A DNA stretch of 43,313 nt from the IMG/VR virus record IMGVR_UViG_3300044499_000010; one strand, 5' to 3'. Origin of the DNA: a virus. The notes below the pieces were generated by a model. It did no database searches and had not been told where the DNA came from. It saw only the letters and a program-made list of their open reading frames with translations. Made by a program: the position numbers and the translations under genes. Every line of letters begins with the position of its first letter. Within the stretch, counting starts at the first letter, position 1. Below are positions 1 to 20,194 of the stretch, in pieces.

Positions 1-127
1 AAAAACGGCGGGTGGGTGGGGTTTAATTCGACGCCCTTTGGCAATAATCATTACAAACGCCTCTGTGCCTTTGCCGCCAAGAAAATGGCGGCGGGAGCCG
101 ATTGGTTCTTCGAGAAATTAACGGCGG
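1..127. repeat. Terminal direct repeat, identical to 43187..43313 (circular-assembly overlap or terminal redundancy)
   Basis: Read directly: aaaaacggcgggtgggtggggtttaattcg...gagaaattaacggcgg occurs at both window ends. Length is 127 bp. Confidence 0.95.
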
Positions 128-978
128 ACGAATGCCGCGTCTATTCCCCGATGCAATTGCAGGACATTTTAGAGCAGCTGCAGGATACGCATGGGGAGGA
201 CTATGGCAAATCGCTCTGGTTGCAGGAATATTACTGCTCATTTGACGCCGCCATTCCCGGCTCGATCTGGGGCGATTGCGTGACGAAGGCGGAAGTGGCG
301 GGACGCATTCTGGACTTTGAGCCCGATCATACCAGTCCGGTCCATACCGCGTGGGACTTAGGCCGCACCGACGACACCTCCATTTGGTTCTATCAGTTCA
401 AGGGGCCCTGGCTCGATATTTTCGATCATCACAGTTCCTCACTCAAAGACATCCCCTTCTATATGGACCTCCTGGAGTCCAAGCGCGTGGAGCATGGCAT
501 CGCCTATGCCCGTCATCACCTCCCGCATGATGCCCGGCCCCGCACCTTGGCCGCCGGCGGCCAATCCATTTGGCAGCAATGTCACAATGCCGCGAAGCAC
601 AACCCCGCGCTCGGCAGCTTTCAGATTGGGAAGCGCCTCGACAAGCAGGAGCACATTCAGGCCGGTCGCGCGACGTTTCCGCATGCGCGATTTCACAAGA
701 CGCGCTGCGCTAAAGGGCTGGAGAGTCTGCGCTGTTATCACCGCGAGCGTGACGAGGAGAAGGAAGTGTTTAAGGATACGCCGGAGCACGACTGGTCCTC
801 GCACGACGCGGACGCCTTCATGGAGTTGGCGACAAGCTGGAAGCGCACCGACGCGGCGAAGCCGGAGAGTCCCTTAGTGGATAAATTGTTGGCCCAGAAT
901 CCCAACGTCATGGCCTTCAGCGCCTTGAAGGCGCAACACTTTGCGAAGATGCGTCGGCAGCGTGAGGCGGTGGCCTGA
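1..978 (+). CDS. terL: Terminase large subunit, C-terminal nuclease part (continuation of 42734..43313)
   Basis: In frame from base 1 (KNGGWVGFNSTPFG...). RNaseH-like terminase nuclease motifs are present: HTAWDLGRTDDTSIWFYQ and DWSSHDADAF. Stop TGA at 976..978. Confidence 0.85.
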   Translation, partial: KNGGWVGFNSTPFGNNHYKRLCAFAAKKMAAGADWFFEKLTADECRVYSPMQLQDILEQLQDTHGEDYGKSLWLQEYYCSFDAAIPGSIWGDCVTKAEVAGRILDFEPDHTSPVHTAWDLGRTDDTSIWFYQFKGPWLDIFDHHSSSLKDIPFYMDLLESKRVEHGIAYARHHLPHDARPRTLAAGGQSIWQQCHNAAKHNPALGSFQIGKRLDKQEHIQAGRATFPHARFHKTRCAKGLESLRCYHRERDEEKEVFKDTPEHDWSSHDADAFMELATSWKRTDAAKPESPLVDKLLAQNPNVMAFSALKAQHFAKMRRQREAVA

Positions 979-3263
979 TGGCGGACGAGACCGACACCCC
1001 GAAGGACGACACCGAAGCCGTGGGCCGCTGGCTCAAGGAGATCACGGCCTGCCGGACGCGGGAGAAGGACTTCCGCACGGATGGGCAGCGGATTCTAGAG
1101 ATTTACGATGGCACCAAGGCCAAGGACGTGCCCTTCAACATTCTCTATAGCAACACCGAAACGCTGCTCCCAGCCTTGTATTCGGCGATTCCGCGCCCCG
1201 TGGTCCAACGGCGCTTCAAGGACGAGGACCCACTCGGCAAATCGGCAGCCCAAGCGGGCACCCGCTGCTTGGAGTTTCTGTTGGATACCAACACCGACGC
1301 CTACGAAACCTTTGACGAAAGCATGCAGCTCGCCACGCTGAACGCGCTCTTACCGGGCCGCGCCTTCACGGGGGTGAAATACGATGGGGAAGAGACCGAC
1401 CAGTACAAAAACGAAACCGTCTGTCTCGACACGAAGAACTGGAACCGCGTCTACCACGGCTACGCGCACAAATGGAACGACGTGCCCTGGGTGGCCTATG
1501 AAGATTACATCGACCGACCTGAAGGCCTACGGCTTTTTGGCGAGGATATTGTCAAACTCCTCACCTTCAGCGATCAGGAAGAACTCGACGCCTCCGACGA
1601 CACCAAAGGCAAAAAGGAAGAACCGCACCAAGGCGAGCGCAAGTTAACCCGCATCTATCAGATCTGGGATAAAGCCGGTGGGCGCATGGTGCGCTACGTG
1701 AGCGAGCAGGTCAAGGATCGGTTCTTGAAAGAAGAGGACGATCCGCTGGAATTGACGGGCTTCTTCAACTGCCCGCGTCCGCTGTCGTTCTTGAAAAAGC
1801 CGCATAGCCTGACCCCCACCGCGCCGTATATTCTCTATGAATCGCAAGCCAAGGAATTGAACGAACTCACGCGGCGCATTAAGGCCGTGACGAAATCCAT
1901 TAAGGCGAAAGGTCTCTACGACGGGGAACTGGGGCCGGATCTGCAAAAGTTGGTCGATGCGGGCGAAGGGGAATTGGTGGCCGCCGATAAATCGAGTTCG
2001 CTGGCCGCCGAGAAGGGTCTGCAAAACGCCATCTGGTTCTTTCCGGTGGACAAACTCATCGTGGTGGTGCGCGAACTCTACGCCGCGCGCGAAGCCTGTA
2101 AGCAGGTGATTTACGAAATTACCGGCATCAGCGACATCATCCGGGGTGCCTCGAAAGCCTCTGAGACGTTGGGCGCGCAGGAAATCAAGCAGCAGTGGGG
2201 GACGTTGCGGCTGAAGCGCTCCCAGAAGGAAGTGGCGCGGTACGCCCGCGATCTGCTCCGGCTCATGCTGGAGATTGCCGCGACGAAGTTTTCTGAGGAG
2301 ACGTGGGCGCGGATGACCGGCTTGCCGTTTTTGCTCTCCGAGAAGTTCAACGAATTGACCAAATTAGCGGAACTGCTCTCGCAGGACGTGCAGAGATTGC
2401 AAGCCTCAATCCCTCCCCCACAGCCCGGTGGTCCACCGCCGCCCGAGCCGCCGCAGGTCCAGGAATTGGCGAAGATCAAACAACAGCTGCAATCGCCGCA
2501 ATGGAAAAACGTCCTCGCCATGTTGCGCGACGATCTGCAACGCGCCTACCGGATCGACATCGAAACGAACAGCACGGTCGAACCCGAGGCGGTGGAGGAT
2601 CAAAAGAACATTCAAGAGGTCATGGCCGCGATGGGGCAGGTGTTGAACGGGATCGGCCCGCTCGTGGCCAAAGGGGTGCTGCCATTTGAAGCGGCGCAAG
2701 TCATGTTGTTGACGATTGTGCGCCGCTATCGCTATGGGTCCGAATTGGAGGACACGATCAAAGCGATGAAGCCGCCGCCCAAAGAGGATGATGGGAAAGC
2801 CGCCGAGATGGCGCAGATGCAGCAGCAGATGGCGGCGCAACAGCTCCAGGCGCAGCAGCAGACGGCGCAGCAGGACTTGCAAGTGAAGACGATGACGGCG
2901 GAGAAAGGGATTCTTGAACAAAAGATCGATCTGCAACTCCGCGAGATTCAGTTGAAAGCGGAGCAGGATAAATTGGCGCTGGAGCGCCAAGCGTTCGAGA
3001 AGCAGAGCGCCATGCAGCAGCAGCTCCAGGCCGCGAAGATCGGCCCCGAAGCGCAACAGATGGAAATGAGTAAGATGCAAGCGGAGCGGGCCATGGAGAA
3101 GATGAAGTGTGCGATGCAGCAGGAGACGGAACTCAAAAAGTGCATGATGCAGCAAGAAACGGAGATGAAAAAAGCGACGATGGACCACGAGGCAAAGATT
3201 GCCGTCGCGCACATCGCCGCCAAGGCGCAAAAAGACAAACCGCAGCCGGTGGGGGCCGCATGA
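978..3263 (+). CDS. Portal protein with a long C-terminal Gln-rich coiled-coil extension
   Basis: 761-aa ORF whose ATG overlaps the terL stop (TGATG). The call rests on position directly after terL and on size. It has a poly-Pro linker (IPPPQPGGPPPPEPPQ) followed by a heptad-like Q/A/E/K-rich tail of roughly 170 aa. Confidence 0.7.
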   Translation: MADETDTPKDDTEAVGRWLKEITACRTREKDFRTDGQRILEIYDGTKAKDVPFNILYSNTETLLPALYSAIPRPVVQRRFKDEDPLGKSAAQAGTRCLEFLLDTNTDAYETFDESMQLATLNALLPGRAFTGVKYDGEETDQYKNETVCLDTKNWNRVYHGYAHKWNDVPWVAYEDYIDRPEGLRLFGEDIVKLLTFSDQEELDASDDTKGKKEEPHQGERKLTRIYQIWDKAGGRMVRYVSEQVKDRFLKEEDDPLELTGFFNCPRPLSFLKKPHSLTPTAPYILYESQAKELNELTRRIKAVTKSIKAKGLYDGELGPDLQKLVDAGEGELVAADKSSSLAAEKGLQNAIWFFPVDKLIVVVRELYAAREACKQVIYEITGISDIIRGASKASETLGAQEIKQQWGTLRLKRSQKEVARYARDLLRLMLEIAATKFSEETWARMTGLPFLLSEKFNELTKLAELLSQDVQRLQASIPPPQPGGPPPPEPPQVQELAKIKQQLQSPQWKNVLAMLRDDLQRAYRIDIETNSTVEPEAVEDQKNIQEVMAAMGQVLNGIGPLVAKGVLPFEAAQVMLLTIVRRYRYGSELEDTIKAMKPPPKEDDGKAAEMAQMQQQMAAQQLQAQQQTAQQDLQVKTMTAEKGILEQKIDLQLREIQLKAEQDKLALERQAFEKQSAMQQQLQAAKIGPEAQQMEMSKMQAERAMEKMKCAMQQETELKKCMMQQETEMKKATMDHEAKIAVAHIAAKAQKDKPQPVGAA
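3108..3173 (+). repeat. Imperfect 33-nt tandem duplication inside the portal C-terminal tail
   Basis: tgtgcgatgcagcaggagacggaactcaaaaag / tgcatgatgcagcaagaaacggagatgaaaaaa encode CAMQQETELKK / CMMQQETEMKK. Confidence 0.85.
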
Positions 3264-3937
3264 CGCCGCTTCGGGTGTTCATTGGATTCGATAGACGCCA
3301 ACCTATCGCCTTTCAAGTGGCGGCGCAGTCGGTCTGGCAGCGCACGAGCGTCCCGGTGAGCATCACACGGCTGGATATTGCACAGTTGCCGATTACGCGA
3401 GTTGGACTAACTGCATTCACCTATTCCAGATTCCTCGCGCCCTGGCTCTGCGACTTTCACGGCGTCTCGATCTTCATGGATAGCGATGTGCTGGTCCGCG
3501 GCGATGTCGCGGAACTGCTCGCCTATCCGCTCATGGAACCGAAAACGCCGGTGTTTGCCGTGAAGGGCCAGAAGAAATTTGAGTGGGCGAGCGTGATGGT
3601 GTTCAATAACCCCCTCTGTCAAATGCTCACACCGTTGGTCGTGGAGAAACCGCACTTGAATCCCTTGACATTTTACTGGGCGCATACCGTGGGCGAGTTG
3701 CCGACAGCATGGAATCATTTGGTGGGGTATGACGCGTCGAACCCTGACGCCAAGCTCGTGCATTTTACGGCTGGCATCCCGATCTGGCCAGAGACCAACG
3801 GGTGTGAACATAGTGCAGAATGGCATAGCACGGCGAAGGCCTCGATGGGGTCCGTCTCCTACGAGGCGTTGATGGGGCGCAGCGTCCACAACGTGGCGAT
3901 CAAAACGGGGGCCATGAAGTTGCAGGCAGGGGTCTGA
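3260..3937 (+). CDS. Glycosyltransferase family 8-like (GT-A fold, DxD)
   Basis: ATG 3260 overlaps the portal stop (ATGA). MTPLRVFIGFD..., TAFTYSRFLAPWL, DxD motif in IFMDSDVLVRGDVAEL, and a C-terminal HFTAGIPIWP resembling the GT8 HxxGxxKPW motif. Confidence 0.65.
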   Translation: MTPLRVFIGFDRRQPIAFQVAAQSVWQRTSVPVSITRLDIAQLPITRVGLTAFTYSRFLAPWLCDFHGVSIFMDSDVLVRGDVAELLAYPLMEPKTPVFAVKGQKKFEWASVMVFNNPLCQMLTPLVVEKPHLNPLTFYWAHTVGELPTAWNHLVGYDASNPDAKLVHFTAGIPIWPETNGCEHSAEWHSTAKASMGSVSYEALMGRSVHNVAIKTGAMKLQAGV

Positions 3938-4374
3938 TGCCGCTGTATACGTACAGGTGTGAGAATGACCATCGAGCGGAGACGTATCATCCGGTCAAGC
4001 TGCTTGGGGCCTATCTGATGCTCTGTGATGAATGCGGAAAAACAATGAGCGAAACAGTTATTCAGGCGCCTCTTCTTGTAAAAGTAGCGCAAGATGTGTG
4101 CTATGACTCTCCTGTGACGGGCGCGCCGATCACTTCCTGGGCGGCCCGTGAAGAGGATTTGAAGCGGAACAATTGCCGGCCATACGATCCCGACGCGAAA
4201 ACTGACCACGCGAATCGAATCAAGGACTCCGAAGCGGCTTTAGATCGCACCGTCGATGCCTCCGTGGAAGAGGCGATTGAGAAAATGCCAACCGCGAAAC
4301 GCGGCAAGCTGTTCAGTGAATTGGTGAACCAGGGAGTCCAGGCCGACGTGATTCGGAGCACGCCGCATGCGTGA
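3937..4374 (+). CDS. Zinc-ribbon protein (FmdB-like N-terminus), function unknown
   Basis: TGATG overlap with the GT8 gene. The N-terminus MPLYTYRCENDH...MLCDECGKTM resembles the FmdB-type Cys ribbon. Confidence 0.5.
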   Translation: MPLYTYRCENDHRAETYHPVKLLGAYLMLCDECGKTMSETVIQAPLLVKVAQDVCYDSPVTGAPITSWAAREEDLKRNNCRPYDPDAKTDHANRIKDSEAALDRTVDASVEEAIEKMPTAKRGKLFSELVNQGVQADVIRSTPHA

Positions 4375-4459
4375 TCCGGCACTCCGTCAGGTCATCATTG
4401 ATGTACTGAGGATGCTCAAGGGTTTAGAGAAGAAACTGAAAGAACTACTCGATAAATAA
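4367..4459 (+). CDS. Possible 30-aa ORF (MRDPALRQVIIDVLRMLKGLEKKLKELLDK)
   Basis: ATG overlaps the end of the previous gene (ATGCGTGA). The peptide is amphipathic and helix-like, and the ORF is followed by a terminator-like hairpin. It is too short to support strongly. Confidence 0.25.
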   Translation: MRDPALRQVIIDVLRMLKGLEKKLKELLDK

Positions 4460-4493
4460 TCCGCGTACCCGCGCAGAACACGCCGCGTCACAC

Positions 4494-4530
4494 GCCTCAT
4501 GGTCCCAAGGGACTGTGGGGCGTTTTTTAT
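4494..4530 (+). terminator. Rho-independent terminator-like hairpin plus T-run
   Basis: gcctcatggtcc-caag-ggactgtggggc forms a 12-bp stem including 3 G-U pairs, followed by gttttttatt. It lies between the Zn-ribbon gene and the scaffold gene. Confidence 0.5.
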
Positions 4531-4542
4531 TCTGGAGGCTCT

Positions 4543-5556
4543 ATGGCCGAGGAACCGACCGCCACCGTTGAGGTAGACGAGTCTCAATCCATCGACATCG
4601 CTGCTGGGGTGGACAAGATCAGCGCCGACCTCTTTCCTGAGTCGATAGAGAAGGAGCCGACGCCACAAGAGACCGTGGCGACGGCATTGACTGAGCCAGC
4701 CATCCCGACCAAGACGGTGGCACCCCTGCCCACGATCCGTCAGGCCCCGAAGAGTTGGGCCAAGGACGTGCATCCCCTCTGGGAGAAGATCGATCCGAAG
4801 GCGCAGGACTACATTGAAAAGCGCGAGAAGGATTTTCTCGACGGATCGGAGGGATACAGAGAGGCGGCCAAGTACGGGAAGACATTGCAAGACGCCATCG
4901 CCCCGTTTCAGCAGACGTTGCAAGCGCAAGGGATCGATGCGCCTACGGCAGTCAAGACGCTCCTCGAAGCGCACTACAAGCTGACGCAAGGGACGATGGA
5001 ATCGCGTCAGGCCGCCTATAAGGATCTGGGGACACGGTTAGGTCTCCCCGCCGCGCTGGTCACGAACGGCAGCGAGCCGGTCACGCCGCTTGATCCGCGT
5101 CTTCAGACCATCGAGCAACAACTCCAAGAACTCCGGGACGCGCAAACGCGCCAGCAGCAGACGGCCTTACAGACGGCACGAGAGAAAGCCAGTCAGGAAG
5201 TCAGTGCGTTCGTGAGTGAGACGAACAAGGATGGCACACCCACCCACGTTTTTTTTGATGAGTGTCACGACGCCATCGTGACGTTCCTCAAGGCCGGGGA
5301 CTCCTTGCAGGAGGCCTACGACAAGGCGGTGTGGGCGAATCCTGTGACACGCGAGAAATCGAAGCTCGCTTACTTTCAGACAGAAAGTGAGAAGGCCAAG
5401 GAACGGGCGCGACTCGATGCCCTGCCCAAGCAGAAGGCGCGAGGCGTGAACGTCAGAAGTCAGGACACCCAGCGGCCTCCGACAGATCCGCTCGGGTCAA
5501 TGGAAGACACCTTACGGGCCACCGCGAAATCCATACGCGAGCGGACCGTCCATTAA
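4543..5556 (+). CDS. Scaffolding protein (putative)
   Basis: 337 aa with RBS GGAGG upstream. It has an acidic N-terminus and is helical, Q/E/K/A-rich and coiled-coil-like. It sits immediately upstream of the major capsid gene. The call is by synteny and composition. Confidence 0.55.
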   Translation: MAEEPTATVEVDESQSIDIAAGVDKISADLFPESIEKEPTPQETVATALTEPAIPTKTVAPLPTIRQAPKSWAKDVHPLWEKIDPKAQDYIEKREKDFLDGSEGYREAAKYGKTLQDAIAPFQQTLQAQGIDAPTAVKTLLEAHYKLTQGTMESRQAAYKDLGTRLGLPAALVTNGSEPVTPLDPRLQTIEQQLQELRDAQTRQQQTALQTAREKASQEVSAFVSETNKDGTPTHVFFDECHDAIVTFLKAGDSLQEAYDKAVWANPVTREKSKLAYFQTESEKAKERARLDALPKQKARGVNVRSQDTQRPPTDPLGSMEDTLRATAKSIRERTVH

Positions 5557-5576: not shown

Positions 5577-6536
5577 ATGCCAGCGAATGCCACCTTTACG
5601 GAACTGGTCACGACCACGTTCCGCAAACATCGCAGTCAAGTGAAAGACAACCTGAGTCTCAGGATCGCGCTGCTCAAGTACCTGAAGCGGCGCGGGAACT
5701 ATCGCCTGGAAGATGGCGGGCTTGAAATTGCTTGCCCGCTCGACTACGCGTCCAATGGGACCTATCAGCGGTATTCCGATTGGGACCTTCTCAATATCAG
5801 TCAATCGGACGTGCTCTCCGCCGCTGCCTATCAGTGGCGGCAGATCGCCATCAACGTGGTGGCGAGCGGGCGGGAGTTGCGCATCAACAGCGGGGAGACG
5901 CAGATCATCAACCTCGCCAAGTCGCGCATTAAGAACGCCATTCGGACGTTCAACAATAACTTCAGCTCGGATGTGTATTCCTCGGGCTCGCTCACCAATC
6001 AGGTGAACGGGCTGCAAGCGATCATTGCCGACACCAACACCAATACGGTGGGCGGGATCGATGCGAACGTCTGGACGTTCTGGCGCAATACGGTGCTCGA
6101 TGCGTCGGACGCCGTGACGACCATTTCGGCGACGAATATCGAGCATGGCTGCATGTTGCCGCTGTGGCTCGATTTGGACCGTGGCCCGGACGATCAGCCG
6201 GATTTGATCGTCATGGACGACGTGTACTACGCACTCTTTGAAGCCTCGCAGACCTCAATGAAGCGGTACAACGACGCGACGAAGAGCGATGCGGGATTCG
6301 TGACGATGAAGTACAAGGGGGCGGACGTGATCTTCGACGGCGCCTCGGGCATTCCGGCGAGCCACGCCTACTTCATCAATACCAATTACCTGGAACTCGT
6401 CGCGCATAAAGATGCGGACATGGAGGAAATGGACGCCTTGCATCCCGTGAATCAGGACGGCTCAGTCATCCCGATCCTCTGGATGGGCAATGTAGTCTGT
6501 TCTAATAGAGCCCTCCAGGGTGTCATTAAGACCTAA
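5577..6536 (+). CDS. Major capsid protein (putative HK97-fold)
   Basis: 319 aa with a strong RBS (GAAGGAG). It follows the scaffold-like gene, and its size and position are typical of a podovirus major capsid protein. Confidence 0.65.
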   Translation: MPANATFTELVTTTFRKHRSQVKDNLSLRIALLKYLKRRGNYRLEDGGLEIACPLDYASNGTYQRYSDWDLLNISQSDVLSAAAYQWRQIAINVVASGRELRINSGETQIINLAKSRIKNAIRTFNNNFSSDVYSSGSLTNQVNGLQAIIADTNTNTVGGIDANVWTFWRNTVLDASDAVTTISATNIEHGCMLPLWLDLDRGPDDQPDLIVMDDVYYALFEASQTSMKRYNDATKSDAGFVTMKYKGADVIFDGASGIPASHAYFINTNYLELVAHKDADMEEMDALHPVNQDGSVIPILWMGNVVCSNRALQGVIKT

Positions 6537-6587: not shown

Positions 6588-7085
6588 ATGGCCGTTGCGA
6601 GCAAAATCATCAGTCCGATTGTCACGCCAGCCTTGAACGCTACGTCCTCGACGCCGGGAATCACGTTGGGGACCATTGCGCACACGGATATGGGGGGCGT
6701 GGCCGAATACGGGTACGCCATCTCGCTGATTTCGCAGTATGCGTTCAGCATCTTGTACGACGGCGGGTCCGCCGAGATGGCGACCACGACCCTGGCCGCC
6801 GACGCGGGCAGTTCCAAGAAAATCGGTTGTCCCCAGGCCAGCATTGCGTCAGCCTATTACGGCTGGTTCATGCGCCAAGGGACGTTCATCGGGCGCTTTT
6901 CCGATGACTGTGCCGATCAGGTGCCGTTGTTTACGACCGCGACGGCGGGCGAACTCGACGACGCCACGGTGTCGAATTGTCTTGTGGCGGGGGTGTATCT
7001 GAACACGACCGCCTCGCTGGCGACCGCGTTGACCTGTTACGCGGCCACGCCGATGTACGTGCATCCGTACACGAACCCGGCGTAA
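6588..7085 (+). CDS. Hypothetical head-associated protein (possible capsid decoration/auxiliary protein)
   Basis: 165 aa, RBS AAAGGAGA, directly after the major capsid gene. It is Ser/Thr/Ala-rich and contains N-x-S/T sites (NATS, NTTA). Confidence 0.35.
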   Translation: MAVASKIISPIVTPALNATSSTPGITLGTIAHTDMGGVAEYGYAISLISQYAFSILYDGGSAEMATTTLAADAGSSKKIGCPQASIASAYYGWFMRQGTFIGRFSDDCADQVPLFTTATAGELDDATVSNCLVAGVYLNTTASLATALTCYAATPMYVHPYTNPA

Positions 7086-7087
7086 GC

Positions 7088-7876
7088 ATGGAGACCGCGA
7101 TCCGACAGCGCCTCCATCTCGATGTGGGTCAGTTTGGCGTGGCCGCGCAACATCGGCCCGCCATTCTGGCCGCGATGGCGCGCGGACTCCCGGAGTTTGC
7201 GCCGGCGCTGGTGGCCCACGACGGGACCATGGTGATTGCTGGGAGCGGCCCTTCGCTCCCGGCCTTCATCGACGAGATCCGCGCGGAACAGCAGCAGGGC
7301 CGCCCCATTTGCGCGGTCAACGGCGCACACGATTTCTTGTGTGAACAGGGGATTGTGCCGGAGTTGTTCCTGACCGTGGACCCACGCGACCTGCGGCATA
7401 ACCTCCGGCACAAGAACGAGGACACAATCTATCTTCTGGCGTCGCGTGTCGCGCCGGAAGTCTTTGACCATTTGAAGGACTGCCGGGTGATGCTCTGGCA
7501 TTCGGCGGGGCATCCCAGTGAAATGCCGGTGTTTGAAGGGACGGGCGTGAAGAAGATCGGCGGTGGGTCTACGTCCGGGCTCCGGGCGATTGCCGTGACC
7601 TATCTCATGGGATTTCGGAAGATGCTGTTATTCGGGTTTGATTCGTGTAATGACGCCGAGGGGCGCAAACGCTTTGACAGTGGCACCGTGACGGTCAATA
7701 CCGATGTGATCGTGGGCGGGCGCACCTTCGTTTGTAGCATGGCCATGGCGGCCCAAGCCAACGAATTTCAGATGTCCACCTACGGCATGCTGCCAGGGTT
7801 GCACCTGGAGGTGAAAGGCGATGGCTTGATTGCCGCGATGTTGGAAGAGAGGCGGAAGGCGGGATATCGGGTATGA
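7088..7876 (+). CDS. DUF115 / MptE-like (Maf-type) putative glycosyltransferase
   Basis: 262 aa from ATG 7088. Motifs: IAGSGPSL, ICAVNGA, and GGGSTSGLRAIAVTYLMGFRKMLLFGFD. This pattern matches the motility-accessory-factor/DUF115 family. Confidence 0.6.
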   Translation: METAIRQRLHLDVGQFGVAAQHRPAILAAMARGLPEFAPALVAHDGTMVIAGSGPSLPAFIDEIRAEQQQGRPICAVNGAHDFLCEQGIVPELFLTVDPRDLRHNLRHKNEDTIYLLASRVAPEVFDHLKDCRVMLWHSAGHPSEMPVFEGTGVKKIGGGSTSGLRAIAVTYLMGFRKMLLFGFDSCNDAEGRKRFDSGTVTVNTDVIVGGRTFVCSMAMAAQANEFQMSTYGMLPGLHLEVKGDGLIAAMLEERRKAGYRV

Positions 7877-8718
7877 AGGCCGTGTTCGTACATAGAATGG
7901 GCCCCACGTTTGCGAGTTTCCGCTACCGCGCCCAGATTCCCGCGAAGGCGATTGGGGCCTCCGTGAACGGCGGTGAAGGCTCCGTCTACATCTTCAGTAA
8001 GCCGACGCCGGATGACATCGTGTTGGCGAAAGAGTGTAAGGCTGAAGGCGTCAAGGTGGTGGCGGATCTGGGCGATGATCATTTTCGGCATCCCACCTGG
8101 GGGCCGATCTATGTCGAGATGGCCACACTCTGCGATGCGCTGGTGGTACCGACCGAGAATATGGCGGGCCGCATTATGAAGTATCTCGGCAGGAAGGCAG
8201 ATACGATCATTCCCGACCCCTACGAGGAAGCGTTGACGGCCCCTCATGCGAACGGGAAGGACGCCCGCTATTGCTGGTTCGGGAGTCCGGCGAATCTGAA
8301 AGACTTGGATGTCTATTGGCACTTTCTGCAGAACATGCCGTTGACGGTCGTGACGGGACAGAACCCGCGCAAGAACTTCAACTATATCAGGTGGTCTCCC
8401 ACGGCGCAGACCGAGCAATTGCACGCGGCGAATATCGTGGTGCTCCCGATCAGAAAAGGCGTCGAGTACAAGAGCCCCAATCGGTTGGTCAACGCGCTGC
8501 GTGCGGGCTGCTTCGTCGTCACCGATCGGCATCCCGCGAGCCTGGCCTTTCGGCGCTACGTCTGGGTGGGGAATGTGATGACCGGCGTGAAGTGGGCGCA
8601 ATACTACCACGACGAATTGAACGACATGGTAGCCGAGGGGCAAGCGTACTGCGAACAGTTTTCACCGGAAAACGTAGGGAAGCAATGGACACAACTTCTC
8701 AGCAGCCTGTCCGCATAA
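7873..8718 (+). CDS. Glycosyltransferase, GT-B (group 1-like)
   Basis: ATGA overlap with the previous gene. The C-terminal motif VLPIRKGVEYKSPNRLVNALRAGCFVV resembles the GT1/GT4 nucleotide-sugar binding region. Confidence 0.55.
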   Translation: MKAVFVHRMGPTFASFRYRAQIPAKAIGASVNGGEGSVYIFSKPTPDDIVLAKECKAEGVKVVADLGDDHFRHPTWGPIYVEMATLCDALVVPTENMAGRIMKYLGRKADTIIPDPYEEALTAPHANGKDARYCWFGSPANLKDLDVYWHFLQNMPLTVVTGQNPRKNFNYIRWSPTAQTEQLHAANIVVLPIRKGVEYKSPNRLVNALRAGCFVVTDRHPASLAFRRYVWVGNVMTGVKWAQYYHDELNDMVAEGQAYCEQFSPENVGKQWTQLLSSLSA

Positions 8719-9191
8719 ACGTCGGCAGCGGCCTGGCCCACTTCCCTGGCAAGTCGTGGATTAACTGCGACCGCCACGGTGACCCTGATGTCCAATGTGA
8801 CGCCTACCCCTTGCCCTTCGACACGGACTATGCGGATGAAGTGTGGGCCATTCATTTGCTGGAGCATATCCATCGCTCGGAAGCCGGGCGCGCCCTGTAT
8901 GAATGGTTTCGCGTACTGAAGCCAGGCGGCAAGCTGGTCCTTGAAGTGCCATGCCTCGATAAGATTGCGCAGCTCATTGTGAACGGCGAGAAGAACATTC
9001 GCTTGACGACGATGGGGCTCTTCGGCGATCCGCGTGACCCGAAACCTGACATGCTGCACAAATGGTGCTGGTCGAAAACGGAGTTGACCGATACCTTGGT
9101 CGGCGTGAACTTTCAGGACATTACCGTGATGGAGCCTATCTTCCATCTGGCTGCACGGGACATGAGGCTGGAGGCCCGCAAACCATGTTAG
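8685..9191 (+). CDS. Class I SAM-dependent methyltransferase (Methyltransf_11-like)
   Basis: MDTTSQQPVRINVGSG..., AIHLLEHIHRSEAGRALYEWFRVLKPGGKLVLEVP. The start was chosen at the first ATG downstream of most of the overlap with the GT-B gene. Confidence 0.75.
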   Translation: MDTTSQQPVRINVGSGLAHFPGKSWINCDRHGDPDVQCDAYPLPFDTDYADEVWAIHLLEHIHRSEAGRALYEWFRVLKPGGKLVLEVPCLDKIAQLIVNGEKNIRLTTMGLFGDPRDPKPDMLHKWCWSKTELTDTLVGVNFQDITVMEPIFHLAARDMRLEARKPC

Positions 9192-10273
9192 CCTGTCGCC
9201 TCTGCTGTGGCCCCACCCGCACGATGCTGTCGCTCACGCCGACGCCGCTGGCGAACAGCTTTCCCGACCATCCTGACACCGATGCCGAACGCTTCCCGTT
9301 GGACGTGACGCAATGCATCCTCTGCGATCATGTGCAACTGGGCTCGGCGCCGGCGGTCGATTGGGTGGATTATCGCTATGCGACCCCAGAGGCTGTCAGG
9401 CCGCACCTGGCAGCAGCGGCCAGTGTTCTACGTGGAACATATCCCGAGGCCAAGACGGTGCTGGAGATCGGCTGCAACAACGGCTTGTATTTGGAGGAAT
9501 TGCGGCGGGTCGGCTTCAGTGCCGTTGGGATTGATCCTAGTACCACGGTTGGAATCGCACGGCCATTCTCTCATTACTATGCAAAGATGTTCCTTGAGCC
9601 CGTGGACTTGATCGTGGCGAACAACGTGCTGGCCCATGTGGACGACCTCTGGGATGTGTTTCGCGGGATCGACCATCTCTTGAAAGACGATGGGGCGCTG
9701 GTGTTTGAGGTGCAATACTTCCCGTATATGGTGCGCGATGGATCATTTGACATGATTTACCACGAGCATCGGGACTACCACACGCTGGCTCCGTGGCCAG
9801 CCTTCCTGAAACGGTTTGGGTTGTTCATCACGAAAGTGGAACCGATTCCTACTCATGGCGGGTCCGTGCGGATCTTCTGTGAACGTCCAGGTGTTGGGGT
9901 GTGGTGCATACCGAATGAAGCCACAGACTGGCGCGCCTTCAAGCACCGCATCGCCGACGCGAAAGCGGTGGTGTTTGCACAGGTGGCGGCGGCTGATGGC
10001 CCTATTGTGGCCTTTGGGGCGACGGCGAAGGCCTGTACGCTGATTCATCACTTTGGGCTGGCGGATCTGATTGACTATTGCGTGGATAGTACGCCAGGGA
10101 AACGGCAACGGTATATTCCTGGCACGTCGATTCAGATTGTCTCGCCAGATGTGATCGGGCCAGAGATCACGATTCTCTTGACCGCCTGGAACTTTGAAAC
10201 CGAAATCAGAGCGCAATTCACGCATAACAAATTCATCGTCCCCTTCAGCAAGGAGGTTGTATGTCCGGTGTAA
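9185..10273 (+). CDS. NDP-hexose C-methyltransferase family (Zn-ribbon Methyltransf_13 + SAM domain + Methyltransf_14 C-terminal domain)
   Basis: CRLCCG...LTPTPLANSF...FPLDVTQCILCDHVQL (N-terminal zinc domain). VLEIGCNNG...GIDPS (SAM motif I). PTHGGSVRIF and IVAFGATAKACTLIHHFGL...YCVDSTPGKRQRYIPGTSIQIVSP (C-methyltransferase C-terminal domain). Confidence 0.8.
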   Translation: MLACRLCCGPTRTMLSLTPTPLANSFPDHPDTDAERFPLDVTQCILCDHVQLGSAPAVDWVDYRYATPEAVRPHLAAAASVLRGTYPEAKTVLEIGCNNGLYLEELRRVGFSAVGIDPSTTVGIARPFSHYYAKMFLEPVDLIVANNVLAHVDDLWDVFRGIDHLLKDDGALVFEVQYFPYMVRDGSFDMIYHEHRDYHTLAPWPAFLKRFGLFITKVEPIPTHGGSVRIFCERPGVGVWCIPNEATDWRAFKHRIADAKAVVFAQVAAADGPIVAFGATAKACTLIHHFGLADLIDYCVDSTPGKRQRYIPGTSIQIVSPDVIGPEITILLTAWNFETEIRAQFTHNKFIVPFSKEVVCPV

Positions 10274-10971
10274 TGGAAATGGCGACGGAACTCCTCGGCA
10301 AGACTGGCAAGCCGGCCTATGTCGAATTTTCTCAGGTGGCGAAGCATCTGCCCATCCAAAGCGAAAAAGAAGGCCGCTATGTGGCGATCGACGTGGATAT
10401 CGTGACGGTGCGGCAAATCGGCTCGGCGGACTCGGCAATCTTTGAAGTGGACCGCTGGCACAAGCAGAACCAGGCAGAGGTCAAAGGCGGGCGGCTGCCG
10501 CGCGAGCATGCCGACTACTACGAGCGGGCCTACAAATCCTGGAAGGCGGGGCAGGAGCTGCCGCTGGAAGGGACGCCGATCAAAGGCTGGCCGGTCATTG
10601 CCCCGTCGCAATGCGAGGCGATCATTCGGGCGGGCATCCGCACCGTGGAGGACTTGGCCCAGATGAACGGCGAAGCCATGCAGCGCATCGGGATGGGTGC
10701 GGTGATGCTCAAAAACAAGGCGCTGGCCTGGGTGGCGCAGGCCAAGGATAAAGGCCCGCTCACGATGCAGATGGCGGAACTCCAGAAGCAGAACGATCTA
10801 CTGAAAATGAATCTGGAGAATCTCACGGAGCAAATGGCGGCCTTGCAAACGGAGAAGCCACGCAGCCAGACGGTGTATCAACCCATCGAGGAACCTCAAC
10901 TTGGTATTGGCTTGAGCGACATTCTGGACCCTGAACCGTCCAAGCGGAGCCATCACCGCAAGGAGGCGTAG
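10261..10971 (+). CDS. Hypothetical protein with helix-hairpin-helix-like motif and C-terminal coiled coil
   Basis: Strong RBS AAGGAGG 5 nt upstream of ATG 10261. IIRAGIRTVEDLAQMNGEAM is HhH-like, and LQKQNDLLKMNLENLTEQMAALQ is coiled-coil-like. Confidence 0.6.
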   Translation: MSGVMEMATELLGKTGKPAYVEFSQVAKHLPIQSEKEGRYVAIDVDIVTVRQIGSADSAIFEVDRWHKQNQAEVKGGRLPREHADYYERAYKSWKAGQELPLEGTPIKGWPVIAPSQCEAIIRAGIRTVEDLAQMNGEAMQRIGMGAVMLKNKALAWVAQAKDKGPLTMQMAELQKQNDLLKMNLENLTEQMAALQTEKPRSQTVYQPIEEPQLGIGLSDILDPEPSKRSHHRKEA

Positions 10972-11682
10972 ATGTCGGTCCTCACCACGATCCAATACGT
11001 CTGCGGGCGGACCAATGTGCCGGTGCCGGCCACCGTCCTTGGCAATACGGATACGCAGGTCGTGCAGATGCTGCGGCTCCTCGAGGAAATCGGAAACGAC
11101 ATGGCGAAACGTGGCGATTGGGAAGGCGTGACCCGTGAGGCCACCCATACGAGTCTGGCCGATGAGGATCAGGGCACCATGGTCAGTATTGCTACGAACG
11201 GCTTTCGCAATCTCAAAAACGGCACCTTCTGGGACCGCACGAATAAGCTGCCCATCCTCGGGCCGCTCAACGATCAGCAGTGGCAAACCTTGAAAGGCAT
11301 GGCCACGACAGGCCCGCGCTATCACTTCCGCATTCGCGGCGGGAAACTCCTCATCAATCCCACGCCCACGGCGGGCCATACCTGGGCGTTTGAATACATG
11401 AGCAAGAATTGGATGCTGGGCGTCGATGGCACGACCTATAAGCAATACGCCACGCTCGATAGCGATACCATCCTCATCCCCGAAGACGTGCTGATTATGG
11501 GGCTCAGGTGGACGTGGAAGAAGGAAAAGGGCATGGACTACGCCGAAGATATGGCCACCTACGAAGCGCAAATCAAGGACTCACTCGGGCGCGACGGCGG
11601 CAAAGCTACGCTGCACATGGACGGCGGGGTGCGGGATGCGAGACCTGGGATCTTTGTACCAGATATGAGCTTGGATCTATAA
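10972..11682 (+). CDS. Putative head-to-tail adaptor / tail tubular protein A-like
   Basis: 236 aa, RBS AGGAGG. It occupies a T7 gp11-like position, after the head genes and before a large beta-rich protein. The call is by synteny only. Confidence 0.35.
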   Translation: MSVLTTIQYVCGRTNVPVPATVLGNTDTQVVQMLRLLEEIGNDMAKRGDWEGVTREATHTSLADEDQGTMVSIATNGFRNLKNGTFWDRTNKLPILGPLNDQQWQTLKGMATTGPRYHFRIRGGKLLINPTPTAGHTWAFEYMSKNWMLGVDGTTYKQYATLDSDTILIPEDVLIMGLRWTWKKEKGMDYAEDMATYEAQIKDSLGRDGGKATLHMDGGVRDARPGIFVPDMSLDL

Positions 11683-11851: not shown

Positions 11852-13420
11852 ATGAGAACCGCTGTCCGCCAAGGCCGCGTGGCCAAGCAAAAGATCTCGA
11901 TCACGCAGACGTACCCGGCCCCCATTGCTGGATGGAACGCGCGCGATGGGCTCGCCTCGATGAAGCCCACTGATGCGATCGTGCTCAAGAACTGGTTTTG
12001 CCGCCCGTCCTATGTCGAGTTTCGCGGCGGCTGGGCCGAGCATGCGACCGGCACCACAGGCACAGTGAAAACGATTGCCGTCTATAACAAGATGACGGGC
12101 AGCAATCAGCTGTTCGCCTATACCGCGAGCGGGATTTATAACGTGAGCAGTGCGGGCGCGGTCGCCGCCTCGGTCCTCGCCCGCACGAACGGCAAGCACC
12201 AGTGGGTGATGTTCGGGGACGGCACGAGCAATTGGTTGATCGCGGTCAACGGCGTCGATAAACCAGCCTACTACGACGGCACGACCTGGACGGCGGTGAC
12301 AGAAGCCACGAGCCCGGCCTTGACGGGCTACCCTGCGAATGCCGTAGAGCAGTTCATCGCCGTCACGGTGTTCAAGGGCCGCCTGTTTCTCATTCCGATT
12401 AACAGCCTCTCATTCTGGTATCTGGCGGCAGGCGCAGCCGGTGGGGCCTTGACGGAGTTTGATCTGTCAGGCGAAGCCACAAAAGGCGGCTACTTGCTCG
12501 CCATGGCCACCTGGACGAGGGATGCGGGGAGTGGCCCGGACGACTTCGCCGTATTCTTCACATCCGAGGGTGAGGCGATTGTCTATCAAGGGACGAACCC
12601 CAGTGCGGTGAATACCTGGGCCAAGGTGGGCAGCTATACGATTGGGAGACCGCTCGGGCGGCGCTGCGTCATGCAGTACGGCGGGGACTGCGTGGTGCTC
12701 ACGGAGAACGGGGTGTTTCCGTTGTCGGCGCTCCTCCAGTCTGGTGACGAGCGGGCGAAGTTCGCGCTGTCCTATAAGATCCAGAACGCCGTGGTCGATG
12801 CCGCACGCAGCTATGGGTCCACGTTTGGATGGAAGGCGATCACCTTTCCCGCCTATGACGCGATGCTGGTAAATGTTCCCATTGCCGAGGACGGCGAGCA
12901 TGAGCAGTACGTGATGAACACCCTCACGAAGTCGTGGTCGAAGTTTACCGAATGGGACGCAGAGGATTTCGCGGTGTTCAACGGCGAACTCTATTTTGCG
13001 GTGGGCACGGAAGTCCGCAAATGCTGGACCGGCACGATCGACGGCGCAAACGATATTGTCTACTACGGCAAGCAGGCGTTTCAGGACTTCGGTGATCCGC
13101 GCAAAAAGCACTGTCAATTGTTCATGCCGATGCTTGCGGTGAGTGGGAATGTGGCGTATGGCGCAGATATCGACGTGGATTTTGAAGATGAAGAAATCTC
13201 CGGGACCGCCTCCTACACCGTCACTGCCGGGGCGCTCTGGGATGCCAGCAATTGGGATGAAGCCTATTGGGCGGAAAGCACGGTCACAGTGAAGCAGTGG
13301 AGTAGCCCTGCGACGTGGGAGGGGCGCTGGCTCTCCACGAAGCTCAAGATTGCCTCTAACGCGCTCACGGGGCAATGGAATGCGTCGGTCCTCGTCTACG
13401 AACATGGGGAGGGGCTATGA
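11852..13420 (+). CDS. Putative tail tubular B / nozzle-like protein
   Basis: 522 aa, beta-rich with repetitive G/T/W/Y blocks suggesting a propeller. It occupies a T7 gp12-like position. Confidence 0.4.
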   Translation: MRTAVRQGRVAKQKISITQTYPAPIAGWNARDGLASMKPTDAIVLKNWFCRPSYVEFRGGWAEHATGTTGTVKTIAVYNKMTGSNQLFAYTASGIYNVSSAGAVAASVLARTNGKHQWVMFGDGTSNWLIAVNGVDKPAYYDGTTWTAVTEATSPALTGYPANAVEQFIAVTVFKGRLFLIPINSLSFWYLAAGAAGGALTEFDLSGEATKGGYLLAMATWTRDAGSGPDDFAVFFTSEGEAIVYQGTNPSAVNTWAKVGSYTIGRPLGRRCVMQYGGDCVVLTENGVFPLSALLQSGDERAKFALSYKIQNAVVDAARSYGSTFGWKAITFPAYDAMLVNVPIAEDGEHEQYVMNTLTKSWSKFTEWDAEDFAVFNGELYFAVGTEVRKCWTGTIDGANDIVYYGKQAFQDFGDPRKKHCQLFMPMLAVSGNVAYGADIDVDFEDEEISGTASYTVTAGALWDASNWDEAYWAESTVTVKQWSSPATWEGRWLSTKLKIASNALTGQWNASVLVYEHGEGL

Positions 13421-13950
13421 GCCTCGTCTTTTCGATTGAGCCGATTGCCACGTGTTGGCCTGATTTTCTGGACTTGGCGAAGATTCACTGGCAGGGCACT
13501 ACGAGCTATCGGCGCCACGAACCGTTTGACTTGTCGCTCGCCCGATACCAGGCCTGTAACGAATCTGGGTTTCTCCAATTCTGTACCGCACGGGATCAGA
13601 GTCGCTTGGTTGGCTACCTCATTTTCTACGTAACGACTTCCATGCACTCGCAATTAAGTCTTGCGGTCGAGGATACATTTTTTCTTCATCCTGACTATCG
13701 GAAGGGCCGCAACGCCCTCCGGTTCTTGCAGTATGTTGAGCGCCTGTGTCGGGAGTGGGGCATTTCTGAAATGATGTGTTCCTGCGAGGTAGACAATGCG
13801 TCCGGGATTAAAGGTCTGCTGACATTGCTTGACTATCGTGAGGTTGTCGTGCAATATAGCAAAAAGCTCGCCAATTTCTCACCAGGCAGCGACACTGCCA
13901 TAGCTCCTACGGAGCAGCGCAGTGTCGAAGCTCACACCCCTTCAATCTGA
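13417..13950 (+). CDS. GNAT-family N-acetyltransferase
   Basis: ATGA overlap with the upstream gene. LVGYLIFYV...FFLHPDYRKGRNALRFLQYVERLCREWG matches GNAT motif A (R/Q-x-x-G-x-A/G). Confidence 0.7.
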   Translation: MSLVFSIEPIATCWPDFLDLAKIHWQGTTSYRRHEPFDLSLARYQACNESGFLQFCTARDQSRLVGYLIFYVTTSMHSQLSLAVEDTFFLHPDYRKGRNALRFLQYVERLCREWGISEMMCSCEVDNASGIKGLLTLLDYREVVVQYSKKLANFSPGSDTAIAPTEQRSVEAHTPSI

Positions 13951-15073
13951 CGGAACCTGTACCATCAACTTTCATCGACGGCGCACAGTCTTGTCCTGTG
14001 CGCCATCACCACCACCAGCCCCCGATGTGATTGGTGCCGCCAAGCAGCAGGGCATCGAAAATAAAGAAACGGCCATCACGCAAGGTCGGATCAATAACCC
14101 CAACGTTATCAGTCCCTATGGGACGCAAACGACGACCTGGGGCACGGTGGATCAACCGGGCTACGACGCCGCGCTCGCTAAATACCAGACCGACCTGGCC
14201 GCCTACAACGCGCAACCGCTGACGGCCCAGCCTGGTGCCAGGACGTGGGTGCCGAGCACGACGGGGAGTTATACCGACGCGCGAAGCGGCGGCGGAACGC
14301 CAGGTGGCCAATGGGTGACGGCGCCCAGCACGGGCATTCGTCCTGGCACGGCCCCCGTTGCGCCGACAAGAGCCCAATTCACTCGGAACCCAGATCAGCC
14401 CACCATCACCCAGGTCTTTTCCCCTGAACAGCAAGCCCTCTACGATCAAAGCACGACCACGCAGCAGCAGCTCGGGCGCGTGGCCGGACAAGGGGCCACG
14501 GCCCTCGAAGGCGTGGTCGGCACCCCCGTCGATTTCTCCGGCGCCCCTCAAACCGGCAACTACGACGCCACGCGCAAAGCCGTGATTGACGCCATGATGG
14601 GGAGGGTGAATGAGGATTACGACAAGCGCACGGATACCGACCGCTCCAATTTGATTGCTGCCGGCATTCGCCCAGGGAGTAAAGCCTATGCCGATAATCA
14701 GCAGATGATCGAGCGGAGCCGCAACGACGCCTATCAGCAAGCGGAAATCGCGGGAGGCAACGCCGCCTCTCAGGCTTACGGCATGGATGAAGCCCGAAGA
14801 CGGCAGGCGATCACCGAACTGTTAGCCGAGCGGCAAACCCCCATCAACGAAATCAGCGCCCTCCTGTCCGGCTCACAGGTCAGCAATCCGTTCAGCATGC
14901 CGGGGTATGCGCAAAATACGCAAGTCGCCCCGACGCCCTATTACAACGCGGCGCAGGCGGCTGGGCAGTACGGCACCGATATCTTTAATCAGCAGGCGGC
15001 CAGCGCAGGGAACACACAGAGCGGCCTGATGGGCCTCGGGGGGACGGCCATCATGGCAGGAGCGATGCTATGA
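13922..15073 (+). CDS. Putative internal virion / ejection protein (start uncertain)
   Basis: 383 aa from GTG 13922, with GGAG 7 nt upstream. It is Q/A/G/T/P-rich. An alternative start is GTG 14027. Position corresponds to the T7 gp13/14 region. Confidence 0.4.
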   Translation: MSKLTPLQSDGTCTINFHRRRTVLSCAPSPPPAPDVIGAAKQQGIENKETAITQGRINNPNVISPYGTQTTTWGTVDQPGYDAALAKYQTDLAAYNAQPLTAQPGARTWVPSTTGSYTDARSGGGTPGGQWVTAPSTGIRPGTAPVAPTRAQFTRNPDQPTITQVFSPEQQALYDQSTTTQQQLGRVAGQGATALEGVVGTPVDFSGAPQTGNYDATRKAVIDAMMGRVNEDYDKRTDTDRSNLIAAGIRPGSKAYADNQQMIERSRNDAYQQAEIAGGNAASQAYGMDEARRRQAITELLAERQTPINEISALLSGSQVSNPFSMPGYAQNTQVAPTPYYNAAQAAGQYGTDIFNQQAASAGNTQSGLMGLGGTAIMAGAML

Positions 15074-15735
15074 AGGCGCTCGCGTTCTCCGGGGGCAAAG
15101 ATTCGATGGCGTGCCTCCATCTGCTCAAGGACGAATTGGACTGCGCCATCTACGTCGATACGGGTTACACGTACCCCGAGACGCACGCCATGGTCGCGTA
15201 TGCCAGTACCATGATTTCGATGCACCGCGTCAAGAGTGACCGCCAAGGTCAGCAAGCGTTGAATGGGCTCCCCTCCGATGTGGTGCCGGTGGAATGGACG
15301 GTCACCGGGCAATCTATTACCGGGAAGAAAGCGACGACCATTCAAGCCTCCCTGCAATGTTGCTACGAGAATCTGTCTCGCCCGTTACTGGATCGTGCCA
15401 AAGCACTGGGCGTCACGGAGCTGGTCTATGGGCAGCGGAAGGAAGAACTGTACACGGCCCCCTCGAAGCACGGGGAGGTCGTGGAAGGCATGACGCGCCT
15501 GTATCCCATTGAGGACTGGACCACCAGGCAAGTACTCGACTATCTGGCGACGAAGATGCAAGTGCCAGACCACTACACACTCACCCGCTCCTCGCTCGAT
15601 TGCTACGACTGCCCGGCCTATCGGCGCGTATCGCAGGATCTCCATGCCTGGACCAAGGACCGCTATCCCCACTATTACGCCGCCTTTCAGCAGAACTGTA
15701 ACACCGTCTATGCGGCCATTCAGGAGGCGCTGTAG
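15070..15735 (+). CDS. PP-loop ATP pyrophosphatase (PAPS-reductase / adenine nucleotide alpha-hydrolase superfamily)
   Basis: ATGA overlap. The N-terminus MKALAFSGGKDSMACLHLL carries the SGGxDS PP-loop. The C-terminus has SSLDCYDCPAY (CxxC). Confidence 0.75.
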   Translation: MKALAFSGGKDSMACLHLLKDELDCAIYVDTGYTYPETHAMVAYASTMISMHRVKSDRQGQQALNGLPSDVVPVEWTVTGQSITGKKATTIQASLQCCYENLSRPLLDRAKALGVTELVYGQRKEELYTAPSKHGEVVEGMTRLYPIEDWTTRQVLDYLATKMQVPDHYTLTRSSLDCYDCPAYRRVSQDLHAWTKDRYPHYYAAFQQNCNTVYAAIQEAL

Positions 15736-19986: not shown

Positions 19987-19997
19987 TAAGGAGCCCT

Positions 19998-20180: not shown

Positions 20181-20194
20181 CAAAGGAGACGACC

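Follow-up and report, generated by a model that had tools for sequence, protein, structure and literature searches.

A Maf-like enzyme cassette that appears to move with the gene of a candidate virion glycan acceptor in uncultured Mx8/Tb-like phages

The window analysed here is the whole 43,313-nt stretch of viral DNA of IMG/VR record IMGVR_UViG_3300044499_000010, and our subject is an island of four genes for predicted sugar-related enzymes, gA to gD, at positions 7088-10273 of its + strand. A preliminary description of this DNA had placed four tightly overlapping genes in the head module, and this arrangement was confirmed: gA (7088-7876; 262 amino acids, aa), gB (7873-8718; 281 aa), gC (8685-9191; 168 aa) and gD (9185-10273; 362 aa), all on the + strand, overlap successively by 4, 34 and 7 nt. 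On the upstream side, gA starts 2 nt past the stop codon of the gene for a 165-aa protein (6588-7085, +), hereafter the post-capsid protein, which follows the gene for the major head (capsid) protein (5577-6536, +; phrog_9953, 6.4e-72). On the downstream side, the island is bounded by a conserved p50-like gene (10261-10971, +; phrog_20268; 37% identity to p50 of phage MW202489.1, E 1e-39), which gD overlaps by 13 nt. A fifth candidate enzyme, a GT8-like glycosyltransferase, is encoded apart from the island, at 3260-3937 (+).

All these genes belong to the late module, one long + strand block that spans approximately 1-27 kb. A strong intrinsic-terminator-like hairpin upstream of the scaffold gene (4492-4523, +; a 14-pair stem with 8 G-C pairs, then a T run) is likely the upstream limit of the island's transcription unit, and we found no promoter-like site or convincing terminator between this hairpin and position ~11700. 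Together with the start/stop overlaps, this agrees with the earlier placement of the sugar enzymes inside the late structural operon: the island genes are translationally coupled to structural genes, and lie neither in a moron nor near an integration module. A recent horizontal acquisition, as judged from composition, was rejected, since the GC content of the island, overall and at third codon positions (GC3), equals that of the neighbouring genes.

The product of gA, a stand-alone Rossmann enzyme, matches PF01973 (MptE-like/DUF115) with 75.8 bits (cut-off 34.6; E 4.7e-21) over profile positions 26-168 of 171. In Foldseek searches, its AlphaFold2 (AF2) model (predicted local distance difference test score, pLDDT, 89) retrieved as top match the Maf glycosyltransferase 5mu5 from Magnetospirillum (6.2e-10; query TM-score, TMq, 0.66; 247 columns), followed by the MptE kinase 8sd5 (4.7e-7, TMq 0.47, 180 columns) and, weakly, by sialyltransferases. 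Both results uphold the Maf/DUF115-like identity first given to this gene. In comparisons of its sequence profile with the PDB, archaeal MptE pyrophosphokinase and Maf were equidistant (both 1.1e-4), so the label Maf-like rests on fold and genomic context; a Maf-like rather than an MptE identity is thus favoured by the fold comparison, made with a predicted model, and not by the sequence profile. Mafs are Ser/Thr O-glycosyltransferases that use the cytidine monophosphate (CMP)-activated sugars CMP-Pse, CMP-Leg, CMP-Neu5Ac or CMP-Kdo, and their catalytic domain is the central PF01973 domain (PMC11339370; bioRxiv 10.1101/2020.06.03.131540; 10.1101/2023.12.03.569772). In flagellin Mafs, this domain lies between an N-terminal Rossmann-like domain and a C-terminal helical/TPR domain (PMC11339370; 10.1101/2023.12.03.569772), and gA aligns only with the central part of the 632-residue 5mu5 chain (target TM-score, TMt, 0.30). 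Homologues of gA form 439 clusters, with an identical gene order in every context fetched, and its relatives in BFVD are only auto-annotated "uncultured Caudovirales" entries. Likewise, a scan of 185,579 species genomes retrieved only three contigs from metagenome-assembled genomes, labelled Saccharibacteria, Burkholderiaceae and Pseudomonadales, all three of which look like binned phage DNA.

Sequence searches of Pfam, PHROGs, NCBIfam and PDB with gB gave no match. Its AF2 model (pLDDT 95.6; predicted template modelling score, pTM, 0.92) shows a compact GT-B fold, and the top Foldseek matches were SdgB, GtfC, Gtf3, MshA, SenB and BshA (1e-8 to 1e-7, TMq up to 0.75). The model had 137 PDB matches with E <= 1e-3, and the best 50 of these 137 are GT-B-type enzymes or close structural relatives, with probability 1.00. 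The earlier GT-B assignment is therefore borne out through the structure model, which predicts a GT-B glycosyltransferase where searches with hidden Markov models alone gave nothing. The protein lacks curated GT1/GT4 Pfam membership; matches of this kind were limited to the fused homologue P0253, which reaches Glyco_trans_1_2 (3.3e-5, slightly under the cut-off) and Glyco_trans_1_4 (2.1e-4). The top structural matches include enzymes acting on serine-rich proteins, namely SdgB, GtfC and Gtf3 (TMq 0.60-0.74); these enzymes, which serve the glycosylation of serine-rich-repeat adhesins, act in the cytoplasm, where they add sugars to Ser-rich proteins or lengthen a sugar that is already protein-linked. 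However, identity with gB is only 13-18%, gB is shorter, and it belongs to a family of its own, with 844 representative, unannotated clusters. GT-B folds being generic, we consider this likeness a resemblance and not membership. No match to gB was found in the 185,579 species genomes. Separately, we observed three giant, TPR-rich proteins (P0276, P0296 and P0313; 1857-2225 aa) with a gB-like domain at approximately 1220-1486 and a C-terminal GT1-type domain, which suggests that the gB family may also be present in large multi-domain glycosyltransferases.

Given the equal profile scores of gA, it might instead be an MptE-like pyrophosphokinase or another nucleotide-dependent enzyme, in a cassette whose substrate would be a small molecule or the phage DNA, the latter perhaps altered by sugar hypermodification of bases. 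Indeed, PF01973 takes its name from the archaeal 6-hydroxymethyl-dihydropterin pyrophosphokinase, the structural operon also holds a PAPS-reductase-like gene, and GT-B enzymes are also known to glucosylate phage DNA (general knowledge; Pyle et al. 2024, as presented in PMC12619734). We nevertheless regard this alternative as very improbable, because Foldseek ranks Maf ahead of MptE, with a longer alignment and a higher TMq, and because the best 50 structural matches of gB are glycosyltransferases of proteins or small molecules, with no DNA glucosyltransferases. In addition, the scanned proteins included no hydroxymethylase and nothing that resembled a thymidylate synthase, and DNA-modification genes normally lie in replication modules (general knowledge).

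The two remaining genes of the island encode methyltransferases, as previously described. The product of gC, called a class I S-adenosylmethionine (SAM) methyltransferase, scores above the cut-off with Methyltransf_11 (1.7e-9; 38.6 bits, cut-off 21.2), shows motif I (INVGSG) at residues 11-16 and matches the PDB methyltransferase 3bus (2.2e-5). In NCBIfam, the mycofactocin oligosaccharide methyltransferase MftM came out as best partial match (8.5e-8), far under its cut-off, and we propose that gC O-methylates a sugar. The call of gD as a nucleoside diphosphate (NDP)-hexose C-methyltransferase, of the TylC3/TcaB9 type, was well founded: it combines Methyltransf_13 (Zn), Methyltransf_23 and Methyltransf_14, all above their cut-offs, and aligns end to end with solved sugar 3-C-methyltransferases (5t64, 2.7e-38; 4rv9, 4.4e-38; TcaB9; with 3ndi included, the range extends to 3.6e-33), with the zinc-site Cys pairs and the Y-x-E-H motif in register. 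It has the full three-domain architecture in common with TylC3, TcaB9 and KijD1 (E ~1e-38 end to end) and differs from these in its location, in a phage head module lacking dehydratase, aminotransferase and ketoreductase genes. Since no 4,6-dehydratase, epimerase or reductase was found among the scanned proteins of this phage, the substrate of gD would have to be supplied by the host.

The evidence is weaker for the gene at 3260-3937, which had been described as GT8. Its product falls below the cut-off of Pfam PF01501 (GT8; 4.6e-4, 20.3 bits versus 24.3) and matches phrog_28018 (1.5e-21). The profile of its family matches the GT8 domain of WbbM (1.3e-3) over a stretch that spans the DxD motif expected of a GT-A enzyme, and the family alignment shows an invariant D74-x-D76 and an HYT..G.P motif. 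WbbM, an O-antigen enzyme, is also the sole PDB sequence match of this protein. The GT8 assignment is thus weak but consistent, and we consider this gene a detached member of the island's system.

Concerning the gene upstream of the island, the capsid gene of Mx8 is directly followed by a gene whose product (162 aa, AAK94384.1) carries the annotation of a second "major virion structural protein". The post-capsid protein of our phage is a secure homologue of this product (hhalign probability 99.6%, E 1.8e-23; BLASTP 7e-10) and also matches phrog_29386, a virion structural protein (3e-5); by the Mx8 annotation and this homology, 6588-7085 encodes a virion protein. Its Ser+Thr content is 21%, versus roughly 8-17% in the other genes tabulated, in keeping with the initial view of a Ser/Thr-rich head-associated protein; three tail-region proteins are the exception. 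We take the post-capsid protein to be a capsid surface or decoration subunit. The three exceptions are encoded consecutively (18853-25669, +; 377, 325 and 1072 aa), contain 20-25% Ser+Thr and are probably fibre or spike proteins, the largest with an fn3-like domain, which makes them other candidates for carrying the glycan. The idea that acceptors linked to Maf share characteristic Ser/Thr sites was also considered and discarded, because the enrichment, at alignment positions matching T29, S129 and S143 of the post-capsid protein of this phage, was weak and not decisive.

We compared the contexts of gA and gB homologues, plus 80 IMG/VR loci with a capsid protein 68-90% identical to that of this phage, mapping genes by tblastn. 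Many of the resulting 89 related loci are interrelated, so that the counts below are not numbers of independent events. A p50-like gene is present in nearly all of them, and in the interval between the capsid and p50 genes the post-capsid protein always comes first, with a Maf-like gene or enzymes after it in 39 of the 89 loci. The closest GenBank relatives, MW202489.1 and Bradyrhizobium phage ppBjS10J-1, show the succession capsid protein, one protein, p50 and adaptor, with no enzymes in between. The same arrangement as in our phage was seen in dozens of independent metagenomic phage contigs, a recurrence that exceeds chance, and the order post-capsid gene, Maf, GT-B, methyltransferase is kept even in L009, L010 and L012, whose capsid protein is only 31-34% identical.

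Common to all the slots that bear enzymes is the Maf-like domain. It occurs alone (277-286 aa; L042-L044) or fused to Methyltransf_25 (L025), to Methyltransf_24 (L022, L069 and L090), to GT2 (L065) or to GT-B (P0216, P0226, P0228, P0235, P0253, L011 and L012, with the GT-B domain C-terminal in the P entries), whereas in this phage Maf, GT-B and methyltransferase are separate genes. These fusions to glycosyltransferase and methyltransferase domains, with a virion protein as neighbour, argue further against a role of the cassette in DNA or small-molecule modification. In L065, the slot contains an FdtA/WxcM-like sugar-nucleotide ketoisomerase gene (7688-8110, 1.6e-34) and then a gene for a 746-aa GT2-Maf fusion (7996-10236), which amounts to another sugar chemistry at an unchanged cassette position. 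The head module of L004 has another enzyme gene, which precedes the GT8-like gene there: it encodes a 558-aa protein with TPR and Glyco_transf_41 domains (3499-5175), and thus belongs to family GT41, which we take to comprise O-GlcNAc-type protein glycosyltransferases.

The enzymes co-occur in a structured manner. Homologues of the small methyltransferase gC are found in all 17 loci bearing GT-B, and of the C-methyltransferase gD in seven of these 17. The GT8-like gene is present in eight of the nine GT-B-bearing loci that span the whole region versus none of 32 loci without GT-B, and in L006, L008, L010 and L012 its homologues lie inside or beside the island. These counts indicate a functional unit made up of the Maf-like enzyme, GT-B, the small methyltransferase and the GT8-like enzyme, to which the C-methyltransferase is accessory.

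Clustering of the post-capsid proteins produced five main groups and a singleton (L001; 244 aa, no Maf), and the group predicts the presence of enzymes. Maf is absent from the groups of ~238 aa (0/25 loci) and 154-171 aa (0/11), occurs in 19 of the 21 loci of the 162-193-aa group, and is constant both in the group of this phage (158-174 aa; 10/10 loci, all with GT-B too) and in a group of 165 aa associated with Maf-GT-B fusions (4/4). In trees of 70 non-redundant loci, built with the unweighted pair group method with arithmetic mean (UPGMA) and therefore crude, the presence of Maf requires three changes on the post-capsid tree, as opposed to 15 on every one of the other three (capsid, p50 and adaptor), with ~23 changes for shuffled labels. 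Plain linkage does not explain this asymmetry, because the p50 and post-capsid genes lie equally near the enzyme genes. From these sequence comparisons, it appears that the acceptor-like gene and the enzymes move between phages as one cassette. Besides, the longer post-capsid protein often found in phages without Maf (~238 aa, e.g. L020, 6354-7070) has at its C-terminus an additional domain of ~80 aa, which the Maf-linked versions lack; extra domain and glycan might be alternative surface decorations.

This asymmetry has consequences for which virion protein is modified. The location in the late operon and the set of enzymes would suit any virion protein, such as the major capsid protein, p50, the adaptor or nozzle, or the Ser/Thr-rich tail proteins of 18853-25669, several of which have 20-25% Ser+Thr; moreover, the virion glycans of mycobacteriophages Che8, Corndog and Myrna are on the C-termini of capsid and tail-tube subunits (Freeman et al. 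2023, as presented in PMC12619734). A target other than the post-capsid protein is still unlikely in our opinion, because Maf follows the post-capsid tree and not those of capsid, p50 and adaptor, and because it adjoins the post-capsid gene even where the capsid proteins have diverged to 31-34% identity.

The same pattern bears on whether the cassette acts on the virion at all, since its enzymes could instead modify host structures late in infection, be they lipopolysaccharide or exopolysaccharide, capsule or flagellin, blocking superinfection or easing the release of progeny from debris. Flagellin glycosylation is the only process from which Mafs are known, O-antigen clusters commonly contain GT-B, GT8 and C-methyltransferase enzymes (general knowledge), and WbbM, the only PDB relative found for the GT8-like protein, is an O-antigen enzyme. 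However, none of the five enzymes has a membrane segment (no 19-residue window with a Kyte-Doolittle mean of 1.6), and all look soluble; among the scanned proteins we found no Pfam matches to GtrA/GtrB-type, Wzx/Wzy or acyltransferase_3 genes, and thus no flippase, polymerase or membrane protein of this kind. Likewise, the island is translationally coupled to structural genes, in neither a moron nor an integration-module setting, it co-segregates specifically with a subtype of a virion protein, and gA is devoid of the flagellin-binding domains of Mafs (PMC11339370). Host modification is therefore, in our judgement, quite improbable. The island also does not resemble the usual seroconversion modules of temperate phages (GtrABC, O-antigen acetylases), which likewise consist of phage-encoded sugar-modifying enzymes. 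These modules are built around membrane proteins and lie near attachment or immunity regions, whereas the enzymes of the island look soluble and are encoded inside the late structural operon.

Together, these results lead us to propose, with modest confidence, that the cassette carries out cytoplasmic protein O-glycosylation alongside expression of the late structural genes, and that its most likely target is the post-capsid virion protein, which would receive a methylated glycan. The proposal builds on gene structure, folds and families, conserved synteny, domain fusions and co-segregation with the acceptor gene, and from these we infer that the target is a protein and which protein it is, as well as the order of steps, the donor sugars, the chemistry and the link of Maf to nonulosonic acids. 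In the proposed pathway, gA would attach the first sugar to Ser/Thr residues of the post-capsid protein, in the cytoplasm, either before the head is assembled or in the course of assembly. In analogy to flagellin Mafs, it would take this sugar from a CMP-activated ulosonic or nonulosonic acid of the host, which might be a universally available one, such as CMP-Kdo. The glycan would then be lengthened by gB and the GT8-like enzyme of 3260-3937, and gC would O-methylate one of its sugars. In the subset of phages carrying gD, this enzyme would convert a host NDP-4-keto-6-deoxyhexose into the donor of a C-methyl branched sugar. FdtA acts on NDP-4-keto-6-deoxyhexose, the same intermediate proposed for gD, and the FdtA-like gene of L065 is thus a hint that these phages tap the product of host RmlB. 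The virion self-glycosylation suggested at the outset gains from the co-segregation, the Mx8 homology, the predicted lack of membrane segments in the enzymes and the co-occurrence of GT8 and GT-B.

Flagellin Mafs, such as those from Magnetospirillum (5mu5), Aeromonas (Maf1), Clostridium botulinum and Shewanella (Maf-1/Maf-2), are the closest known systems for gA, with the PF01973 domain in common and a Maf as best fold match. Flagellin glycosylation islands contain extra glycosyltransferases and methyltransferases, as does the phage locus, and flagellin Mafs O-glycosylate Ser/Thr residues of an abundant structural subunit in the cytoplasm before its assembly, the same chemistry that for the phage is only proposed. 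They differ in that gA consists, with 262 aa, of the central domain alone, is phage-encoded beside the gene of a capsid-associated protein and not of flagellin, and lies in a locus without nonulosonic acid synthesis genes.

Several of these features weigh against our proposal. Apart from its equal profile distance to MptE and Maf, gA lacks the three-domain architecture of flagellin Mafs, with neither the N-terminal nor the C-terminal domain, and we identified no GlfM-like specificity factor. To recognise their acceptor, flagellin Mafs depend on a TPR domain or on the partner GlfM (10.1101/2023.12.03.569772), neither of which gA has, and specificity may thus come from gB, often fused to the Maf-like domain, or from the acceptor itself. 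We found no genes for nonulosonic acid synthesis, NDP-sugar synthesis or a 4-ketoreductase in this phage genome, so that the donors must be host-supplied. A tblastn search with gA against 50,697 GenBank phage records gave no match, and hence no cultured phage with a close homologue. The profile of the post-capsid family had no match in Pfam or PDB, which makes surface exposure an assumption, and the Ser/Thr content of post-capsid proteins is only a little higher with a linked Maf than without one (fractions of 0.206 versus 0.183). Finally, the co-segregation could partly reflect a recombination boundary and not function.

In spite of these points, we tentatively put forward, as something that may be the case although we would not call it probable, that O-linked sugars are placed on the second major capsid (decoration) protein by a minimal enzyme with a stand-alone Maf domain, and that this is a widespread modular cassette of environmental phages. 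If true, acceptor gene and enzymes would be swapped as a unit to diversify the capsid surface. That a phage glycosylates its own virion is already known, and what would differ here is the type of enzyme, the target, the lineage and the modular organisation. As in this phage, the glycosyltransferases of the mycobacteriophages are thought to act on their own structural proteins, and their genes are reportedly also embedded among virion structural genes, as seen in our gene map. Here, however, the inferred target is a separate post-capsid protein, within an Mx8/Tb-like podovirus-type module, and the set comprises Maf-like, GT-B and GT8-like enzymes and methyltransferases, is modular and appears to be exchanged with the acceptor gene. 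In the literature within our reach, we found no report linking DUF115, MptE-like or Maf proteins to phages.

The first 127 nt of the window (1-127) are identical to the last 127 nt (43187-43313), which indicates a complete, circularly assembled phage genome of ~43,186 bp, and the frame of the large terminase crosses the circle junction, with the open reading frame at 16-978 corresponding to its C-terminal part. No tRNA genes were found in this genome. Its capsid protein shows 60% identity to the major virion structural protein of MW202489.1 and 33.5% to that of Mx8, and on capsid protein similarity the lineage is assigned to the Mx8/Brucella-Tb-like phages, with the uncultured phage MW202489.1 as nearest GenBank record. 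The rest of the head module, all on the + strand, includes the portal gene (978-3263; phrog_12082, 3.7e-141), a gene for a small Zn-ribbon protein (3937-4374) after the GT8-like gene, and the scaffold-position gene (4543-5556), while the p50-like gene is followed by genes for an SU10-type adaptor/tail protein (10972-11682; Pfam and PHROG matches) and a nozzle or "stabilization" homologue (11852-13420).

Other genes for enzymes were noted in the structural region of this phage and its relatives. Directly after the nozzle gene there is a GNAT acetyltransferase gene (13375-13950, +; Acetyltransf_1, 2.2e-7), whose position is kept in many relatives, including phages without the island (it is annotated in MW202489.1 and the Bradyrhizobium phage), and whose product could acetylate a protein or a sugar. 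The PAPS-reductase-like (PF01507) gene is found at 15070-15735 (+), among genes for virion/ejection proteins; L010 and L039 have homologues in comparable positions, but it is missing from most relatives. A homing-endonuclease-type gene with HNH and NUMOD3 domains (21151-21915, +) lies inside the tail gene region. Likewise, MW202489.1 (L001) contains a PhoD-like phosphatase gene (3699-4832) between terminase and portal, which suggests that enzyme genes often insert into the head module in this group of phages.

Virion glycosylation is documented only for mycobacteriophages in the literature that we could reach (Freeman et al. 2023, as presented in PMC12619734). If the cassette acts as suggested, capsid glycosylation would be common in a large clade of uncultured Mx8/Tb-like phages, as judged from its presence in 39 of 89 loci and from the 439 gA and 844 gB clusters; the structure model also provides a predicted fold for the large and so far unannotated gB family. 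The post-capsid protein would, if this is true, be the first non-flagellin natural substrate of Maf-type enzymes, that is, a second substrate class, and the system would be the first for virion glycosylation outside actinobacteriophages. The 165-aa acceptor and the 262-aa enzyme would form a compact pair, with natural fusions, that could serve as a simple test system. More generally, glycosylation by such cassettes would introduce a new variable in capsid surface chemistry, bearing on virion stability, adsorption, recognition by grazers or the immune system, phage therapy and glyco-engineering.

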